Positions 14,174 to 59,832 of a stretch of 64,000 nt of DNA are shown one piece after another; position 1 is the stretch's first letter, and each line of letters begins with the position of its first letter. The stretch is from positions 66,898,001 through 66,962,000 of the forward strand of contig OX597822.1 of NCBI GenBank assembly GCA_951406725.2, written 5' to 3'. A program made the position numbers and the translations under genes. A model generated the notes under the pieces. That model did not search any database, had not been told where the DNA came from, and saw nothing but the letters and a program-made list of their open reading frames with translations. The stretch is from Octopus vulgaris. Lineage: Eukaryota.

Positions 14174-14590
14174 AAGGCGGTGAGCTGGCAAAAACGTTAG
14201 CACACCGGGCGAAATGCTTAGCGGTATTTCGTCTGCCGCTACGTTCTGAGTTCAAATTCCGCCGAGGTCGACTTTGCCTTTCATCCTTTCGGGGTCGATA
14301 AATTAAGTACCAGTTACGCACTGGGGTCGATATAATCGACTTAATCCGTTTGTTTGTCCTTGTTTGTCTTCTCTGTGTTTAGCCTCTTGTGGTTAGTAAA
14401 GAAATAGGTATTTCGTCTGCCACTACATTCTGAGTTCAAATTTCGCCGAGGTCGACTTTGCCTTTCATCCTTTCGGGGTCGATTAAATAAGTACCAGTTA
14501 GGCACTGGGGTCGATGCAATCGACTATATCCGTTTGTCTGTCCTTTTTTGTCCCCTCTGTGTGTAGCCCCTTGTGAGCAGTAAAGGAATA
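14174..14590 (+). mobile_element. SINE family 2 (Meta-domain-like) tandem dimer, tails A-A
   Basis: Head AAGGCGGTGAGCTGGCA, box B GAGTTCAAATTCC, core GCCTTTCATCCTTTCGGGGTCGATAAATTAAGTACCAG; second unit starts at 14407; ATTCTT-T-rich direct repeats flank. Confidence 0.9.
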
Positions 14591-17667: not shown

Positions 17668-18241
17668 ATTAAGTCGATTATATTGACTTCGGTTCTCAAT
17701 TACTCTTTTAATCTTTTATTTGTTTCAGTCGTTTGACTGCGGCCACGCTGGAGCACCACCTTTAATCGAGGAAATCGCCCCCAGGATTTATTTTTTTAAA
17801 GCCTAGTACTTATTCTATCGGTCTCTTTTGCCGAACCGCTAAGTTACGGGGACGTAAACACACCACCATTGGTTGTCAACTGATGTTGGAGGGGGGGGTG
17901 ACAAACACAGTCACACAAACACACACACATATATATACATAGACATATATACGACGGGCTTCTTTCTGTTTCCGTCTACCAAATCCACTCACAAGGCCTT
18001 GGTCGGCCCGAGGCTATAGTGGAAGACACTTACCCAAGGTGCCATGTAGTGCGACTGATCCTGGAACCATGCTACTTACCACACAACCACTCCTGCCACA
18101 GTCATTCGTAACTTATTTTATACACCCCGAATGAAATGCAAAGTCGAACTTGGCGGAATTTGAACTCAGAACGTAGCGACGGACAAAACGCCTCCAAGCA
18201 TTTCACCCAGCATGATGATGATTCTGTGTGCTCACCGCCTA
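17668..18241 (-). mobile_element. SINE family 2 copy interrupted by a full family-1 SINE (17700-18097, minus strand)
   Basis: Family-2 core split at ~17699/18100; the insert has the full family-1 structure with internal CA/TA repeat. Confidence 0.8.
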
Positions 18242-22914: not shown

Positions 22915-23070
22915 TTCCAAATCTTGGCACCAAGCCAGCAATTTCGCGCTGGTGGGTGATTACGTCGTTTATATCGACCCCAGTGCTCAGCTGGGACTTA
23001 TTTTATCGACATCGTAGGAATGAAGTGCATTTCGCCCAGTGCACTAACGACTCCACCACCTCACCATCTA
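22915..23070 (-). mobile_element. SINE family 2, old partial copy (tail C)
   Basis: TTGGCACCAAGCCAGCAATT..ATCGACCCCAGTGCTCAGCTGG..TTTTATCGAC. Confidence 0.65.
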
Positions 23071-27751: not shown

Positions 27752-27784
27752 GATGATGATGACGACGACGACGACGACGATGAC

Positions 27785-27819
<35 letters not shown>

Positions 27820-27964
27820 CGAAGACGATGACGAAGACGACGACGACGACGACGATGATGATGATGACGATGACGATGACGATGATGATGATGATGATGA
27901 TGATCATGATGATGCTGATGATGATGACGATGATGATGATGATGATGACGACGACGACGACGAC

Positions 27965-27996
<32 letters not shown>

Positions 27997-28126
27997 CGAA
28001 GATGATGACGATGAAGACGATGATGATGACGACGACGACGATGATGATGATGATGGAGATAAATGGGAAAATATGAATTCAGGTGATTCCATTGACGGCG
28101 ACGACGACGACGATGATGATGATGAT
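27752..28126. repeat. Long mixed (GAT/GAC)n trinucleotide repeat
   Basis: Directly visible; yields the poly-M/T, poly-H/R and poly-S ORFs. Confidence 0.95.
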
Positions 28127-28464
28127 TGCCATGTTGCGTAAAAGAAGGGAAGACTTTGATACCAACACAGACTTTGATACAAACACATATAAACTCCACA
28201 GGTGTCAAAATAACATCGTGAGTAACACGTTTTAAGTAACTGTAACCTACTGAACCAGTCTATTAACCTTTTTTCAAATATTAAGCTTGCTATGTAAATC
28301 TGTTAAATGCAATCCCATATTGTTTGTGATTTCTGGTCGCTTGAACATTTTTCACTAAAACTTAAACGACCGTAGAAAAAACACGTTGAAACCACCACTT
28401 CCAGTAAGAAATATAATTATAGTTACACTGAAGTTAGTTACAATACAATGACCAAAATAATTAC

Positions 28465-29047
28465 AAGGCGGCGAGCTGGCAGAGACGTTAGCACGCCGAG
28501 CGAAATGCGTAGCCGTATTTCGTTTGCCGTTACGTTCTGAGTTCAAATTCCGCCGAGGAGGACTTTGCCTTTCATCCTTCCGGGGTCGATTAAATAAGTA
28601 TCAGCTACGCACTGGGGTCGATGTAATCGACTTAATCCGTTTGTCTGTCCTTGTTTGTCCTCTCTGTGTTTAGCCCCTTGTGGGAAGTAAAGAAATAGGT
28701 ATTTCGTCTGCCGCTACGTTCTGGGTTCAAATTCCGCCGAGGTCGACTTTGCTTTTATCCTTTCGAAGTCGATTAAATAAGTACCAGTTACACACTGGGG
28801 TAGATATAATCGACTTAATCCGTCTGTCTGTCCTTGTTCGTCTCATCTGTGTTTAGCCCCTTGTGGGTAGTAAAGAAATAGATATTTCGTCTGCCGATAC
28901 TTTCTGAATTCAATTTCCGCCGAGATCGACTTTGCCTTTTATCCTTTCGAGGCCGATAAATTAAGTACCATTTGCATACTGGGGTCGATCTAACTGACTG
29001 ACCCCTTCCCTAAAAATTCAGACCATGTGCCTAAAGTAGAAAAGAAT
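28465..29047 (+). mobile_element. SINE family 2 trimer, tails A-A-B
   Basis: Single head at 28465; units restart at 28698 and 28881 after TAAAGAAATA; flanking AATGACCAA direct repeat. Confidence 0.9.
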
Positions 29048-30599
29048 GACCAATACGGGGATACATATTTTCAATAAAATGATTATAAGCGATTTGAAAA
29101 CTGATATCTGAAAAGCTAACATTAATAATATAACCAAAATGTGATTAATATAATGGTTCATTTAATAGACACAGCATACGTCAAGCAGAGAATATAAACA
29201 CCATACAAAAGGGGAAATTAGCTTACCCTTCAACTAAACATGGAAGTAATACAGTGTACTAAATTATATCTAATTATTTTATTCAGTATAACCATGAACT
29301 GAAAAAATGTGGCTGGCTCGGATTTCTACACTGTTATACATAGACTATAACATTGATTTTTGAACTGCGATATTATAGTCTTACGCTTACCGAGGTATTA
29401 AACCCAATAACCCTGAATATTTATGGCTAGTATTTAGTTATGTGACCTTCTTTCAATAGATTTTCTCCTTGTACAATGTACAATGGTAATATGTCAAAAT
29501 TATAACATTGCGTTTCCCAGAGAGACATTTGAACCCGTTTCATTTTACTGAAAGGTGACTTGTCTGGAGATGGTATTGGTTTATAATCGCAACACAACGT
29601 GACAACAAAATCTGTATTTTAAGCTACACAAAAGCAATAGGCATTTCTATTTACCATAAACAATTACGAAAATGTAGTCTCTTAGTCGTTGATATCTTTC
29701 CCCAAACTTTGTATCGTTTACATGTTGGCAAACTATGATGTCTAACACTAGACCATTTCATGTATTATGCTACATCTGTAGCATAATCTTGCAACAGGAT
29801 CTAAGCGCTCTTAAGCTGTAGGATCTTAATAGAAAATTTGCGGCCTTCCAAAATTAGCAATCCAAATTTTGTGAAGAATTGTATAAACTTAGTATGTCTA
29901 TTGATATGGTTATAGTAAGTTAGCAGCAGATGGACACTGATTGATCTGACTTGATCAAATAATTCAAATCTTGACAATCCTTTCTTTTTTTAATATCTCG
30001 TATTGGTTTTATTAGCGCTGCAGGGTGTGATCTGAAAGTAATTGCACGTTATCTCTAATAAGTTTAACGATCATGGAGAGGTACCCTCGTAAGCCTGAAA
30101 TTACGTAATTGGTATGTTAATTTCTAGTTGATGCTGATTATTCTATATTTAATCATGCTTTCCGGATGCGTTTATATCCGTATTCTTTTCTGGTATACAG
30201 TTTGATGTTTTATGTTATGTATATATATGTATATGGAAGAAGTCAATTCCCTATGGATAAGGTAGGAAGGAAGTTCTCAAGAATGATAGCATTTTCTATT
30301 ACCTGTATTGAGGCCCCATGTTTTGTCACTAACTTGATGCAATTGGATGTATTTCTGTACCATTATATCGTCCCTATCTTGTAGTACACGCTTGATGTAC
30401 AATGTGTACGCAATCTTCAATTCGAAACATGTCCGACATTACTGCTTGGCTTACGAAAGCTACAATCCGGAGTTTAATTATAAGAACCAGGTGTACAAAA
30501 TTCGAAGAAGAAAAAAAAACAAAGCAGCAAGAACAACATAAACAAAGGCAATAAATAACAGCGAGATCCCACATCGTAACATAATGTATTTATCACAAA

Positions 30600-44237: not shown

Positions 44238-45842
44238 AAGGCGGTGAGCTGGCAGAAGCGCTAGCGCGCCAGGCGAAATGCTTAGCGGTATTTTGTCTTT
44301 CGCTACGTTCTGAGTTCAAATTCCGCCGAGGTCAACTTTGCCTTTCATCCTTTCGGAGTCGATTAAATAAGTACCAGTTACGCACGGGGGTCGATATAAT
44401 CGACTTAATCCGTTTGTCTGTCCTTCTGTGTAGTCCCTTGTGGGTAGTAAAGAAATAGGTATTTCGTCTGTCGTTACGTTGTGAGTTCAAATTCCGCCGA
44501 GGCCGACTTTGCCTTTCATCCTTTCGCGGTCGATAAATTAAGTACCAGTTACGCACTGGGGTCGATGTAATCGACTTAATACCTATGTCTGTCCTTGTTT
44601 GTCCCCTCTATGTTCAGCCCCTTGTGGGTAATAAAGAAATAGGTATTTCATCCGCCGCTACGTTCTGAGTTCAAATTCCGCCGAAGTCAAATTTGTCTTT
44701 CATCCTTTCGTAGTCGATTAAATAAGTACCAGTTACACACTGGGGTCGACATAATCGACTTAATCCGTTTGTCTGTCCTTGTTTGTCCTCTGTATTTAGC
44801 CTCTTGTGCGTAGTAAAGAAATAGGTATTTCGCCCGTCGCTAGTTCAAATTCCGCCGAGGTTGACTTTGTCTGTCCTTGGTTGTAACCTCTATATTTAGC
44901 CCATTGTGGGCAATAAAAAAATAAGAATCTTTAGCGCGCTGTTTGAAATACTTAGCGGTATTTCGCCCGTCGCTACGTTGTGTTCAAATTCCACTGAGGT
45001 CAACTTTGTCTTTCTTCATTTCGGGTTCGATAAAATAAGTAACAGTTAAACACTTGGGTCGATGTAATCGGCTCATCCCCACCTCCGCAAAGCTTCTCTT
45101 TTGGCAAAAATTTGAAATAATTATTAGGAATCAATATTTAAGGCTGCATGTTGACAGAATTGTGAGCACGCCGGACGAAATTCTTAGTGGCATTATTCCC
45201 CATTTACGTTCTGAGTTCAAATTCCGTTGAGATCAAATTTTTCTTCCTTGGTCGATGTGGAGGCACATTGCCTAGTGGTTAGAGCAGCAAACTCACGGTC
45301 GAGGGATCGAGGGAGGGTTCGAATCTCAGACTGGGCGATGTGTGTTTTTATGAGCGGAACACCTAAGCTCTACGAGGTTCCAGTAGAAGGTAATGGCAAA
45401 CTTCTGCTGACTCTTTCGCCACAACTTTCTTTCATTCTTTCCTCCTGCATCTTGCAGCTCACCTGCGACGGAACGGCGTCCCGTTCAGGTGGGGAACCTA
45501 TACGCCAAAGTAACCAGGCGTGGCTCGAGAAGGAACATCATTATTCTTGGTCGATAAAATAAGAACCAGTTTAGCACTGATGGCGATGTAATCAACTTGG
45601 CCTCATCTCCGAAATTGCTGTCCTTTTGTCGAAATTTGAAACCGTTAATAGAAATCAGCATAAGTGCGAACTGACAGGATCGTCATCAGTTAGCGGCATT
45701 TCGTCCGTCTTTTCGTCCTCAGTTCAAATATATCCCAGATCGTTTTTGCCTTTCATTCTTTCTGGCTCTATCAAATAAATACCAGTGGCGCACTTACTCC
45801 GCCCCCAAAATTGATGGCGCTGTGCCGAAATTTGAAACCAAT
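44238..45842 (+). mobile_element. SINE family 2 stack of ~7 units (A,A,A,partial A,C,C,C)
   Basis: Units restart at 44458, 44642, 44824, 44924, ~45139 and ~45661; divergence increases 5' to 3'. Confidence 0.88.
45258..45537 (+). mobile_element. SINE family 3 nested in a family-2 unit
   Basis: GGAGGCACATTGCCTAGTGGTTAGAGC..GGTTCGAATCTC; host sequence TTCTT..TGGTCGAT repeated on both sides. Confidence 0.85.
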
Positions 45843-47925: not shown

Positions 47926-48362
47926 AAGGCGGCGAGCTGACAGAAGCGTAGGCACGCCAGGCGAAATGCTTAGCTGTATTTCGTCTGTCTTTACGTTCTG
48001 AGTTCAAATTCCGCCGAGATCGACTTTAGCTTTCTCCATTTCGAGGTCGATAAATTAAATGCCAGTTTCGTATTTGGGTCGATCAAATCGACTGGCCCGC
48101 TCCCCCAAAATTTCGGGCCCTGTGCCTAAAGTACGAAATATTATTGTATGTGTTTGAGTTTGTAAGGCGGCGAGCTGGCAGTATCGCTAGCACGCTGGAC
48201 GAAATGCTAAGCGGTATTTCGTCTGCCGCTACGTTTTGGGTTCAAATACCGCCGTGGTCGAATTTGCCTTTCATCATTTCGAGGTCAAAGACATAAGTAC
48301 CGTCTCATGTAAATGATTCATCTCCACCACCCCTAAGCTGTCCTGTGGCCAAAAATTAAAAT
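47926..48362 (+). mobile_element. SINE family 2 pair (tail B then tail C) separated by a duplicated 22-bp target
   Basis: TATTGTATG(C/T)GTTTG(C/A)GTTTGT precedes both heads (47904-47925, 48142-48163). Confidence 0.9.
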
Positions 48363-49629: not shown

Positions 49630-50998
49630 GTTTCTGATTTAGGCTCGATGCCAGCAAATTTGAAGCGAGAGGGTTATTTGATACCATCGACTACAGTACG
49701 TGTTAGGTACTATATATTATTGACCCTGAAAGAATGAAACAAAATACTGACGTCAGTGGGATTTGAACTCGGGTCATAAAGGTCCAGACAGAAATACGTC
49801 AAAACATATCTTCAGATGATCAAGCGAATTTGAAAGCTCGCGCTATTTGGGTGATTAATAAATAATGGCTTAAAATATTGACATATGGCCAAAAGTCTTT
49901 GCCGAGAGAGAGAGAGTGCGGTTCATTACATCGTCAACAGTTTTAGACTTCTACTTATTTTGTCGACCTCGAAAGAATGAAAGGCAAATTAGAATTCGGT
50001 GAAATTTGAACCCAGAACGAATAGACGGACGAAATGCCGTTATGCATTTTACCGAGCGTGCAAACGTTTCTGCTGACTATTAAATAATATTTTCTACTCT
50101 ATACACAAGGCCTGAAATTTTAGAGAAGAGTCTAGTTGATTATATCGACCCAAGTACTCAACTACCACATATTTTATCGATTCCGAAAGAATAAGGGGCA
50201 AGGTCGACTCCGGTGGTCGAACGGAAAAACAGGCGAAATGACACAATGAATTCTGCTACACCCTGTAACAATTCTTCCTGCACGTCATTCACTGATTAAT
50301 AAATATTCTTTTCTACTCTAGACACAAGGCCCCAAATTTTGGGGGCGGGTGCTTGTCGATTATTTAATCCCAGTACGCAACTGGTTCTTAATTTATCGAC
50401 CCCGAAAGGAAGAAAGGCAAAGTCGACCTCGGCGGAATTTGAACTCAGCCCCTAACGGCAAACGAAATACTGCTAAGCATTTCGCTCGACATGCTAAAGT
50501 TTCTTATTTCTTTATTGCTCACAAAGGGCTAAACAAAGAGGGGTCAAACAAGGAAAGACAAACAGATTAAGCCGATTACATCTACCCCAGTGCGTAACTG
50601 GTACTTAATTTATCGACTCCGAACGGATGAAAGGCTAAGTCGACCTCGTCGGAATTTGAACTCAGAACGTAACAGCAGACGAAATACTAAGCATTTCGCC
50701 CGGCGTGCTAATGTTTCTGCCAGCTCGCCAACTTATGATTAATGAATATTTATTTCTTTATTGCCCACAGGGGGCTCAACATAGAGTGGACAAACAAGGA
50801 CAGACAAATGGATTAAGTCGATTACACTAACCCCAGTGCGTAACTGGTACTTATTTAATCGATCCCGAAGGATGAATGGCAAAGTCGACATAGGCGTAAT
50901 TTGAACTCAGAACGTAACGGCAGACGAAATACTGCTAAGCATTTCGCCCAGTGTGCTAAAATCTGTGCCAGCTCGCGGCCCTACGATTAATAAATATT
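49630..50998 (-). mobile_element. SINE family 2 stack of six units (from head side A,A,B,B,C,C)
   Basis: Units ~50750-50982, 50504-50732, 50306-50503, 50090-50290, 49867-50073, 49630-49843, mostly separated by GATTAATAAATATT-like spacers. Confidence 0.88.
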
Positions 50999-51554: not shown

Positions 51555-51905
51555 ATGTGGATATGGGGTAAGATGTTTACTTCCCATCCACATGGTTCCG
51601 GGTTCATTCCCCTGCGACCATAGCTTCGTATCGACCTCGGCGTTGCGAGTAAATGTGGTTGACGGAAAAGGAAATAACGCCGAGTATATATATATGTGTG
51701 TGTGTGTGTGTTCATCCCTACCTTTGTTTGCCAACAGGTCTTTCTTTGTTTACGTCCATGTAACATAGCGGTTCAACAAAAAAACATTCCTATAGATTAA
51801 GTAGCAGGCTTTAACAATATTTGTATTAGGCAGTATTTCTTCGAGTAAACCTTCATAGGCAGCACTCCAGCATGGCCATAGTTCAATGACTGAAAAAAGT
51901 AAAAT
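51555..51905 (+). mobile_element. SINE family 1, diverged full copy
   Basis: CACATGGTTCCGGGTTCATTCCC..internal TA/TG..GTTTACGTCC..CTCCAGCATGGCC. Confidence 0.75.
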
Positions 51906-52471
51906 TCACTTCCCCATTCTTCTTATCTAGAATAATACATGAATACATACATACAAACACACACACGCACACACACAAACACACACACACATACACAAAC
52001 ACAAACACAAACACACGCACATGCACAAGCGCATATATGACGCCATCATTTTTTCCTACTTTCGTTCCAAACAGTAGAAATTCAATCCGTGAAAACGCTG
52101 CAAACTTTTAAGCTTTCCGATTAAGCTGATTGCACTTGATGCATTTTTTGCTAATCTAATCCTGCATTGCAAAAAACAAAAACTTTGTTTGCTATAATAG
52201 CATAGATTTAGTGCTACATTCTAAATCAAGTGATTATCAGATTTAACGCCGTTGTCTGATCTTTGGTTGCGACACCAGTGCCTGTTCTGGTACAGATTTT
52301 CTATATATTCTTAGCGGGGAGATGAGTCGCTGCTATCTCTAGCGGTCGAAGGTCCATCACCGACGTGATCAAAAGAGCTCGAAATCTCGTGATCTGGTGG
52401 TCTCGGCGCTGGAGTTGATGGGGATTTATCTTCCCGCTGCATTCTGCACCAAAAACCTATATGAGAGTTTC

Positions 52472-52697
52472 TTATTTCTTCATTGCCCACAAGGGGCTAC
52501 ACAGAGAGGGGACAAACAGGGACAGACAAACGGATTAAGTCGATTATATCGACCCCAGTGCGTAACTGGTACTTATTTAATCGACCATGAAAGGCAAAGT
52601 CGACCTCGGCGGAATTTGAACTCAGAACGTAGCGGGAGACGAAATACCGCTAAGCATTTCGCCCGACACGCTAACGCTTCTGCCAGCGCGCCGCCTT
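52472..52697 (-). mobile_element. SINE family 2 single young copy (tail A) with target-site duplication
   Basis: CCTATATGAGA(G/A)TTTCT present on both sides (~52456-52472 and 52698-52714). Confidence 0.9.
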
Positions 52698-52749
52698 CCT
52701 ATATGAGAATTTCTGACACGGTATATACTGTAGTATATACCGTGTTCTA

Positions 52750-54680
52750 ACAGAACAACCATGTTAATGTGAGAATACATACAAGCTCTCGGTATTAATG
52801 CTGCCTCTGTCGCCAACATACGTTCCTCACTTTCAGTATCTCCCAGCCTCTTATGTTGCAGTTTGGGTGTCGTACCCGTTGCGCCAACTACCATAGTAAC
52901 AATTGTCCCCTCAGTCTTCCATATTGTTTCCACGTCTCCAGCTAGGTTCCGATACCCCTTCAGCTTCTTCCTTTTTCTCTCATGTTCAGTATATAATCAT
53001 ACAGCATTGCAATGTCTATGATCGTACACTTTCTGTTTTATATTTCTCTTCAACAATTCATATATCTTCTTGCTTCTGCGGAATGGTCAGTCTTTATGAA
53101 GACATAAATATAATTCTGAAATTATTATTCATCATCGAAGACTCTAGATCATATTCATACCATTCTCGGACAGTTTTAAATCAATCATTTGTCTAATTTC
53201 CCTGAATACATACTTACCGACACAGTCATTCCTTTGCTTGTATTCACTTTGTGCTAGCTTACATCATTCACTTAAGAGACGGTTACTACGTTTGTCTCCA
53301 TTTTCAAAGATTCCGTATCTCACTAATCAAATTCGTTCTTCTATTTTCTCTCCTATCGGCTATAATTAGCTATTTAGTTTTTCTTTGAGGTTTTCATTTG
53401 TGAACTAAAACCAGCGCTATTTGCTACTAGCATCAAATGATCAACAATCCCTTCAATTTGCTTTATGAATTGGCTATGTAATCCCTTGTCTTTCCAGCTA
53501 TTTGTCAAATCCTTCTTCAATTCAATTCCTATTTCACTAACATTTTGGTAATTCATAGTCGCAGATAATTTTCTCTCTTCATAATATATAAATAATTTCC
53601 AAATCCATTATATCAGTATTAATGGTATATTCCTCGATTAAAAATCTTCCGATACCTGCTTTCATTGGTATTTAGAGCTTAATTATGTTCCTTTAAGAGT
53701 GGTGCTCGTTGTGAAAAGTGAGCAGCTTCCTCGTACGTCTAATTCCTGTAATTTGGTCATTGTCCATTTTGGAAAAGCAGCAGAGTGTCTTAATGTTGAT
53801 ATGGCCGTTGTATACATTGCCTAATTAATATTCTCTCAAGTTAGTTGCTCCGGCTTTTTTCCGAATTCATCTAACGTTTCGAGTTTTTCTCATTTCTCGT
53901 TACCTTACTCAATCATCCTGTAGAACTTCTAGCTACATGTATGACTTGCATCCTTCACTATTTCTCAACGATCTCATAACATCTGATGGTAATTTTATAC
54001 CATCAGATTTAATGTTGAGTCTTCTCTTCATAAATGAGGCTGCATATTTATTTCCTCCAAACAGCAGGCCGATGCCCTTACTAAATATTCTTACTCACAG
54101 CTTCCTTTTCGTTGTTCCTATACTCTCTGAAATCATATATATAAATATAGGAGGTGATTTATTTTCATTCGCGTTTTCGTAATGGCAGAGGCAAGCCTGT
54201 ATTTTCTTAGTCTTCTTGTTAGAAAAATGAATGCAATGACGAAAAGTAATGTAGAAAGCACGATTAACTGGAATGAAACTCATGGGAATTTTCACATTTC
54301 CTAATGCATTTCTGCAGTTTATTTCTACTTCCTGCAATCTTCTCATTGACTCCTTCTGTCATCAATCAGCGCAAGAGCCAGCAGTGTAGAACACTACTGC
54401 AGGCTTTCTTGTAATCTTATCCAACCAATAGCTAAATATTTCTTTCTTATTCCTATTCAATGCATACTCTCTCATTACTCTGCTACTTGTTTCAGTCATT
54501 TGTCTGCGACCATGCTGGAGCACCGCCTTTAGTCGAGGAAATCGGCCCCAGGACTTATTCTTTGGAAGCCTAGTACTTATTCTATCGGTCTCTTTTTCCG
54601 AACCACTAGATTACGGTGACGTAAACACACCAGCATCGGTTGTCAAGCGATGTTGTGGGGAGAAACATAGACACACATAA

Positions 54681-54743
<63 letters not shown>

Positions 54744-55135
54744 CATATATATACGACCGGCTTCTTTCAGTATCCGTCAACCAAATCCACCCACAAGACT
54801 TTGGTCGGCCCGAAGCTATAGTAGAAGAAACTTGCCGAAGGTGCCACGCAGTGGAACTGAACCCGGAACCATGTGGTTCGTAAGCAAGCTACTTACCACA
54901 CAGACAGTCCTGCGTCTATAGAGCACTATCAAAATACAAAAGACGAACAGTCCCCTTTATTTCGTTCTACATCCGTTTTGTTCCTACTTCTCCGGATAGT
55001 AATAAATCTGCCATGAGATCAGTTAATTTCCTGAGTAAGGGTAGGCATGTAGCAGGCCTGTATTCACCGAATTACAGTTCCCTTTTCTGTATTCTGTTTA
55101 GGGTAGACTTACTTTTTGTCAGTAACCATGTCAAT
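52750..55135 (-). mobile_element. Dong/R4-like (RLE-clade) non-LTR retrotransposon remnant, RT to C-terminus
   Basis: YRPATCLPLLRKL (RT start, ~55030-55065), WKDKGLHSQF (~WxxKxLHGQF), IWKTEGTIVTMVVGATGTTPK (~MWxxxxxxIPIVIGALGxIPK); many stops; interrupted by a SINE. Confidence 0.75.
54475..54920 (-). mobile_element. SINE family 1, full length, nested in the Dong/R4-like LINE
   Basis: Collinear with 21038-21428; expanded internal (CA)n(TA)n. Confidence 0.9.
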
Positions 55136-59141: not shown

Positions 59142-59364
59142 TTTTATTCTTTTACTTGTTTCAGTCATATGTCTGCGGTCATGCTGGAGCACGCCTTTGA
59201 TCGAGCAAATGGAGTCCAGAACTTATTCCTTGTATGCCTAGTACTTATTCTATCGGACACTTTTGCCGAAGCGCTAAGTTTCAGGGACGTAAACACAACA
59301 GCATCTGTTGTGAAGCGATGTTAGGGTGACAAACACAGACACACAAACATATACACACACATGC

Positions 59365-59404
<40 letters not shown>

Positions 59405-59597
59405 ATGCATGTATGTGTATTTATATACATATATACGACAGGCTTGTTTCAGTTTCCGTCTACCAAATCCACTCACAAGGCTTTGGTCAGCCTGAGGCTA
59501 TAGTAGAAGACACTCGCTCAATGTGTCAGCAGTGGGACTGAACACGGAACCATTGGGTTGGTAAGCAAGCTACTTAGCACACAGTCACTCCTGCGCC

Positions 59598-59600
<3 letters not shown>
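59138..59600 (-). mobile_element. SINE family 1, full length
   Basis: Collinear with 21038-21428. Confidence 0.9.
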
Positions 59601-59634
<34 letters not shown>

Positions 59635-59639
59635 GTGTG

Positions 59640-59832
59640 TGTTTGTCCTCCCACCATCGCTTGAAAACTGACGTTGGTGTGTTTACGTCCCCGTAAATTA
59701 GCGGTTCGTCAAATAGATTCAGATAGAATAAGTACTAGGCCTGCAAAGAATAAGTCCTGGGATCGATGTGTTCGACTAAAGGCGGTGCTCCAGCATGACC
59801 ACTGTCGAAATGACTCAAACAAATAAAAGAAT
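59640..59832 (+). mobile_element. SINE family 1, 3' half, inverted relative to its neighbour
   Basis: GGTGTGTTTACGTCCCCGTAA..AATAAGTACTAGGC..GCGGTGCTCCAGCATG. Confidence 0.85.

Follow-up and report, generated by a model that had tools for sequence, protein, structure and literature searches.

Many copies of the Dip, B1, B2, and Ves SINEs occur in head-to-tail multimers on the same strand, and the accessible part of the report on these families leaves open whether such multimers arise by insertion into an existing copy or from complex templates (PMC8466645). These multimers consist of full-length units thought to be joined at their tails, whereas in the family described here the joint lies inside the head, at position +50 (numbered with AAGGCGG as +1), and 49 nt are lost from all but one unit. 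In the SINE-derived satellites of squamates, as far as the available text describes them, tandem units shorter than the SINE are accompanied, as here, by one longer terminal unit that reaches the SINE end, breakpoints vary among short loci, and long arrays homogenize, which is ascribed to unequal recombination (PMC10702118). In contrast, the present breakpoint is exact to the base across dispersed loci of 2 to 5 units, the units are not homogenized, and the tails are mixed. The satellites are defined by at least 4 middle units with a tendency to homogenize, whereas at most 3 middle units are present here and neighbors are 10.9 to 18.4% apart. Nested clusters of the LINE Zepp likewise grow by repeated insertion into earlier copies (PMC3446292, accessible text), and site-specific non-LTR elements of the R2/Tx1 type combine insertion at a fixed site with homology-assisted joints (for R2, PMC13586686, in part). 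Those elements are autonomous, whereas the one described here is a nonautonomous, widely inserting SINE with a base-exact hot spot within itself. In U6/L1 chimeras, according to the available portion of the report, a full-length polymerase III RNA and a 5'-shortened partner are joined by RtcB ligation before insertion, and the downstream partner is variably truncated (PMC6789731); here, the partner is fixed at +50 and belongs to the same family. Retrozymes, in the accessible account, are also short tandem units of a nonautonomous retroelement (PMC4918200). Unlike retrozymes, the present units have no hammerhead core, are not clonal, and keep a head. A SINE whose own head carries a junction exact to the base was not reported in the literature searched, including the accessible parts of PMC13295347, PMC3747384, and PMC8967140; most subscription papers, Repbase, and the 1994 octopus paper lay outside this coverage, and an earlier description is possible. 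The system works like self-nesting by non-LTR retrotransposition and is set apart from known SINE multimers by its exact internal joint and its single head.

In the alignment of all copies in the window (the whole stretch of 64,000 nt that was analyzed), the unit is 233 nt long and consists of a tRNA-like head, a common core up to about +168, and then tail A, tail B, or older tails. Tail A terminates in AAAGAAATA. The family makes up 6.7% of the window, and 56,510 to 175,328 contigs per public contig set match the element. Each of the 7 blocks examined is flanked by near-identical repeats of 9 to 24 nt, which are short in two cases (9 and 11 nt). The element, being short, dispersed, and very abundant, with variable flanking duplications, behaves as a SINE. 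An A-box pattern fits at +13, the strict B-box pattern fits nowhere, and +77 reads GTTCAAATTCC, one base longer than the B-box consensus. The head was not recognized as a tRNA by ARAGORN (0 hits) or as an RNA family by Rfam (0 at the gathering thresholds and at E values up to 5). Within the 64-kb window, tail A matched SINE copies alone and no LINE carrying it was found. There were no convincing genes in the window, and Pfam searches of three open frames gave nothing above the cutoff. One of these frames (52622-52996, minus strand; no Pfam match) adjoins a solo copy and is presumably similar to the C-terminal endonuclease region of R4/Dong-type LINEs. The element had no matches among viral contigs or bacterial and archaeal genomes, and metagenome matches at 2 loci were attributed to chance, as the DNA there is AT-rich and coding and contains no SINE.

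We take the element to resemble the tRNA-derived OR1/OR2 SINE families of octopus, which gives a lead to both the family and the organism. OR1 and OR2 were reportedly described by Ohshima and Okada in 1994 as two families with a common tRNA-like head and core and different tails. A second family, SINE-like and characterized by an internal TA/TG repeat, is present at 17715-18105 (-), 51612-51903 (+), 54484-54913 (-), 59151-59594 (-), and 59598-59827 (+); its 3' part has core sequence in common with the main SINE, and one copy breaks an old head at about 18110. We take this family to be similar to OK of octopus, where the OR1/OR2 pair is presumably likewise accompanied by a third family, whose internal repeat is TA, in an AT- and microsatellite-rich genome. 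The window is very microsatellite rich, with a long (GAT)n/(GAC)n trinucleotide array at 27752-28141. The OR1/OR2 names and the 1994 reference are given in PMC4758252, PMC4824008, and PMC5804259, and the accessible text of these papers makes no mention of multimers or an internal junction for OR1, OR2, or OK. No published OR1/OR2 consensus was found in the supplementary files of two papers, PMC13282606 among them (one file per paper unsearched). Among octopus repeats, 893 of 900 recently active SINE families are unclassified, and the available parts of PMC13282606 and PMC12988792 do not mention such junctions.

The junction sequence TAAAGAAATA|G(G/A)TATTTC occurs six times in the window with 0 mismatches, always on the plus strand, against 0.04 occurrences expected, and 0 of 100 shuffles reached six. 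All six sites fuse a tail-A end to +50, with junction bases at 14407, 28698, 28881, 44458, 44642, and 44824, exactly as an earlier sequence-only reading of this DNA had placed them. That reading had also proposed a second fixed site near +19, at 44924 and 50503; the junction is real, but it lies at +17, where AGAA(A/T)C begins, at 44924 (+) and 50504 (-). Eleven tail-A 3' ends are present in the window, six of which lead to +50, two to +17, one to the duplicated flank of another copy, and two to ordinary flank. Each of the four fused blocks (14174-14590, 28465-29043, 44238-45126, and 50733-50311 on the minus strand) contains a single complete head, and the last unit of the 28-kb block has tail B, both of which had been correctly noticed before. 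The unit length in the arrays is fixed at 183 to 184 nt, and the 18 close neighbor pairs, which are not independent of each other, all lie on the same strand. The features are as follows.

14174-14590, plus strand: dimer of a full unit and a headless tail-A unit, with a +50 junction at 14407 and a duplication of about 18 nt flanking the block
28447-28455, plus strand: likely target-site duplication, upstream copy, 9 identical bases
28465-28697, plus strand: full-length tail-A unit (+1 to +233, by alignment) with the block's sole complete head
28497-28526, plus strand: head hairpin, +33 to +45 with +50 to +62, loop +46 to +49
28688-28705, plus strand: junction 1, tail end joined to +50, with the inverted repeat GAAATA-GG-TATTTC
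28698-28880, plus strand: headless tail-A unit (+50 to +233, by alignment)
28871-28888, plus strand: junction 2 of the 28-kb block, at +50, whose partner has A at +51
28881-29043, plus strand: headless, more diverged unit with the shared core from +50 to about +168 and then tail B
29045-29053, plus strand: likely target-site duplication around the whole 28-kb block, downstream copy
44238-45126, plus strand: five-unit block with +50 junctions at 44458, 44642, and 44824 and a +17 junction (44924) whose partner is an older copy with another tail; divergence climbs from 5' to 3'
50311-50733, minus strand: tail-A unit joined at +17 (50504) to a tail-B copy
50751-50982, minus strand: full tail-A unit within the upstream duplication of the next block, with three copies of the same flank
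52473-52697, minus strand: tail-A monomer standing alone, with a target-site duplication of 17 nt starting AGAAA; reference for the contig alignment

The 28-kb block lies about 320 bases downstream of the trinucleotide array. A short inverted repeat (52710-52745) lies directly upstream of the duplication of the solo monomer and is covered by a few contigs in three sets.

Contigs of 4 of 24 sequencing runs (X1, X9, X13, and X16) were aligned to the flanked monomer (52410-52760) at 80% likeness; the six best-supported loose ends per set were considered, and all contig counts are lower bounds. A loose end at 52648, which corresponds to +50, with a tail-A consensus was present in at least 492 of 175,328 aligned contigs in X1 (agreement, 0.72), at least 387 of 127,645 in X9 (0.69), and at least 372 of 56,510 in X13 (0.95). 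The agreement of 0.69 to 0.72 in the DNA sets indicates that other sequences precede +50 in some contigs. In X16 (159,097 aligned contigs), this loose end was not among the best six, and a joint between 52631 and 52475, fitting the +50 class, was present in at least 2 contigs. The same joint in X13 represents the +50 junction with a partner of an old subfamily, which starts GATATTTC and has the same +51 variant as the unit at 28881. The remaining listed loose ends reflect the reference monomer's own deletion or the divergence points of older subfamilies and tail B. Compared with the loose ends of the reference deletion, those at +50 numbered 372 versus 1,343 in X13, 492 versus 8,398 in X1, and 387 versus 6,186 in X9, X13 being a contig set whose RNA origin is a guess. 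Joints of the +17 class were found in 1 or 2 contigs each among those listed for X1, X16, and X13. The +50 junction is thus a genome-wide hot junction, found under organism labels A and D at the least. Contigs with an empty site in place of the 52.5-kb monomer were not seen, at low coverage of the flanks, nor were orthologous alleles that are empty or monomeric.

A 13-bp stem (+33 to +45 with +50 to +62, loop +46 to +49) has its 3' arm beginning at the junction base, +50, and pair probabilities of 0.83 to 1.0 are predicted for it in the full RNA; the same fold is predicted for the top DNA strand (-6.4 kcal/mol). Covariation in the stem is weak: among 11 of 15 heads, those with gaps in the stem region being left out, 94.4% of 143 cells are paired, 10 of 500 shuffles are as high, and 2 pairs show double changes. 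The head at 28497-28526 has two pairing-preserving double changes, +35/+60 (also found in the copy at 50504) and +45/+50. In addition, the element's last six bases (GAAATA) have an exact complement, TATTTC, which occurs once in the monomer, at +52 to +57, so that the junction reads GAAATA-GG-TATTTC; the chance of TATTTC falling within 0 to 3 nt of the junction is about 0.002. Three other explanations of the site were rejected. Cleavage of the tRNA-splicing type would cut near +43 and +56 rather than +49/50, according to tRNA geometry; the first helix of an HDV-like ribozyme starting at +50 has no internal partner on inspection; and inverted insertion primed from TATTTC predicts the joint AAAGAAATACCG, which has 0 matches in the window, where all close pairs have the same orientation.

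Comparison of the copies argues for repeated, independent formation of the +50 joint, since neighboring units are no more alike than distant ones, diagnostic bases are swapped, and old or other-tail partners start right at the joint. Adjacent units differ by 10.9, 11.5, 11.7, 14.3, and 18.4%, and nonadjacent tail-A units differ by 7.4 to 16.5% (up to 22.0% with the short unit 44d). The mean number of shared nonconsensus, non-CpG bases is 0.6 in the 5 adjacent pairs versus 1.16 in the 50 other pairs. The diagnostic positions +127 and +130 have opposite arm orders in the 14-kb and 44-kb blocks, and no arm-specific diagnostic bases are common to all dimers, the positions swapping between three blocks in this small sample. 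Young and old tail-A copies as well as tail-B copies serve as partners at the junction, and their own changes start 1 to 13 nt past the joint; partner-specific changes start at +51 in the unit at 28881 and at +59/61/63 in that at 44824. These patterns are poorly explained by a single dimeric master, by local duplication, or by rolling-circle copying from one RNA. Junctions scattered along the head and position-specific diagnostics of one master, which the sequence-only reading had named as counting against it, were observed neither in the window nor among the contig ends listed.

Inheritance of a joint that arose once or a few times would yield base-exact identity without a special target. Dimers would be read through by RNA polymerase III, which is possible as the unit lacks a TTTT terminator, and would retrotranspose, and recombination or gene conversion would spread the joint and lengthen the arrays; dimeric SINEs are known (PMC3531059, accessible text), and an inherited junction could explain the recurrence of the G51A variant in partners starting GATATTTC, at 28881 and in the X13 contigs. 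However, the swapped arm order and the lack of arm-specific diagnostics, which also fit poorly with the dimeric master suggested by the sequence-only reading, speak against this explanation, and crossovers would be needed within about 10 nt of the joint, given how soon old or private bases begin in all three kinds of partners. Such inheritance is therefore considered improbable. Rolling-circle reverse transcription of a circular 184-nt RNA (+50 to +233), in the manner of retrozymes, would account for the fixed unit length, and predicted pairing of the ends could bring them together. This circular-RNA alternative, also raised by the sequence-only reading, is very improbable, because units of the same block are no more alike than those of other blocks and differ at subfamily-diagnostic sites, the tails are mixed, the doubled unit has no hammerhead core (CTGANGA) on either strand and no Rfam match, and each block retains a head that would be absent from the circle. 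Local tandem duplication of DNA by slippage or unequal crossing-over, as for SINE-derived satellites, could use the GAAAT likeness between the tail (+228) and the head (+38), but this microhomology predicts a joint at +43, not +50. Shared private changes expected between the units are absent, and a tail-A unit could not be placed ahead of a tail-B unit in this way, which leaves local duplication hardly credible.

On balance, the blocks, in which units of one SINE family are chained through +50 of the head, were probably assembled unit by unit, through LINE-driven target-primed reverse transcription into older copies. Insertion sites just upstream of heads are reused serially: in three cases, the duplicated upstream flank of a family copy contains the end of the preceding copy on the same strand (50311-50998 on the minus strand and 47926-48301 and 44924-45245 on the plus strand), and one flank is present three times at 50.3-51.0 kb. 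From 5' to 3', changes per site amount to 1.1 and 4.9% in the 14-kb block, 4.3 and 4.4% in the 28-kb block, and 2.9, 3.8, 4.9, and 7.0% in the 44-kb block, counted in tail-A units alone, with rare subfamily variants possibly included as private. An equal-age null gave a P value of 0.027 (0.072 without unit 44d), and the trend is flat across the two tail-A units of the 28-kb block, ahead of its older tail-B unit. The comparison of unit identities, from which the sequence-only reading expected mixed tails and a gradient under serial targeting, yields mixed tails and a weak gradient. The other-tail unit is the 3'-most one in 3 of 3 mixed blocks. No solo copies starting at +50 were found among 29 alignment rows, and none of the 3 blocks with +50 junctions lacks a head. 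The age polarity and the absence of solo copies from +50 appear to mildly favor serial insertion into older DNA over joining at the RNA level. On the other hand, the head at 28465 has 3 differences in 49 positions and looks as young as tail A, and the tail-B unit, the presumed original target, has 15 in 101 in its core; this counts against serial insertion, as a head inherited from the tail-B target should look older. Private bases common to neighbors within +50 to +66, as expected from a hidden duplication, were not clearly found, +63 and +61 being the only ones and both common variants.

In the RNA-level explanation, different SINE RNAs would be chained before or during one insertion and inserted at once, for which the single duplication around each whole block and the mixed subfamilies would be expected. 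An RNA cut or a reverse transcriptase stop at the hairpin apex would create a 5' end at +50, immediately past the loop of the predicted stem; the GAAAUA of another RNA would pair with +52 to +57; and end-to-end template jumping or an RtcB-type ligase would join the two. The ends of a +50 to +233 RNA are predicted to pair with a probability of about 0.28, compared with 0 in the full RNA, and the highest loose-end agreement was found in X13, the set guessed to be RNA. Precedents are template jumping by the R2 reverse transcriptase (PMC13586686) and RtcB ligation of U6 and L1 ahead of retrotransposition (PMC6789731), each as given in the accessible text. However, units of equal age are predicted, whereas the 3' units are more diverged, with private core changes of 4.9 to 7.3% in the tail-B copies at 28881, 47926, and 50504 versus 0 to 6.1% in tail-A units; the predicted solo or headless copies from +50 are missing; and the +17 junction and the flank reuse are left unexplained. 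RNA-level joining is hence regarded as unlikely.

Under serial insertion, the endonuclease of a partner LINE would nick an older copy between +49 and +50 on its bottom strand, at a pyrimidine|purine step. Reverse transcription would begin at the RNA 3' end (GAAAUA), possibly held by pairing with the freed top strand at +52 to +57. In the target, the top strand, cut about 13 to 18 nt further on, would anneal to the identical stretch of the new cDNA, leaving a seamless 5' joint, an invisible target-site duplication, and one head. As the head would be restored, the event could repeat, and each new unit would land 5' of the older ones. The +17 junction may represent the same reaction at an ordinary AGAA(A/T) target that happens to fall in a head. 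That non-LTR elements prime and join through homology or microhomology is established (PMC6007223 and PMC13586686, accessible text). RTE elements leave a stretch of T as a signature, located upstream of the duplication by about 10 nt (PMC6007223, in part), and such a T run was seen by eye in 1 of 6 independent upstream flanks here.

In SINEs mobilized by RTE elements, the duplication is expected to start with the base that is repeated in the tail. Here, the starting base is A at all 5 tail-A ends that do not belong to the +50 class and G at 6 of 6 +50 joints. The +50 joint is thus made without direct microhomology between tail and target, which counts against the serial-insertion account. Ordinary targets of the family (RRTATTY) are similar to the +50 site; the flank after 50751, for example, begins AATATTC. 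At most 21 of 183 RRTATTY sites are +50 sites of the family, yet they received 6 of 7 such insertions, for a motif picked post hoc in a possibly enriched window; for AGAA(A/T), likewise post hoc and possibly enriched, heads hold at most 15 of 623 sites, yet 2 of 3 insertions (P of about 0.002). This excess in heads over the site counts indicates that the local motif alone is insufficient. The simplest reason would be efficient completion of insertion into a homologous copy, with a perfect match of 13 to 18 nt between the target strand and the new cDNA, which would also account for the single head per block. Tail pairing with the top strand, hairpin extrusion, and tethering of the polymerase III machinery at heads could add to this effect. 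Judged by its sequence, the +17 site looks like an ordinary AGAA(A/T) target and not a second special site. The sequence-only reading had proposed sequence-specific nicking inside the head with homology-guided 5' joining. Homology-guided joining and repeated formation fit the data; the specific nick fares less well, as both sites resemble ordinary targets, and the excess in heads may reflect homology-assisted completion, structure, or tail-target pairing instead of a specific nuclease.

A further, doubtful proposal is that the SINE RNA chooses its own target: GAAAUA, the six bases at its 3' end, would pair with the top strand at +52 to +57 of an older copy, at the hairpin arm, so that the RNA end would lie beside the nick. 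Copies with C at +52, which breaks the predicted pairing, were invaded in 0 of 5 cases, a difference that is not significant (P = 0.15). If true, this would represent RNA-guided site choice by a SINE via the nonprimer strand and a landing pad that renews itself and leaves host sequence untouched. Such tail-target pairing would be a natural case of RNA-assisted target choice with seamless homologous joining, relevant to the mechanism of retrotransposons and to RNA-templated genome writing. With a single internal junction exact to the base, tails of two types, and loci that likely number in the thousands, this high-copy family makes the origin of SINE multimers a directly countable question. The blocks also suggest a route from a SINE to a tandem repeat. 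Caution is warranted in practice, as such joints mimic the back-junctions of circular RNAs and inflate family counts in repeat annotation.

Some heads have changes in the hairpin region. The copies at 23027 and 45690 have lost one hairpin arm. In the copy at 50505-50733 (-), a 3-nt deletion at +48 to +50 (about 50687) falls exactly on the junction site in an otherwise intact head and is possibly the scar of a repaired break.
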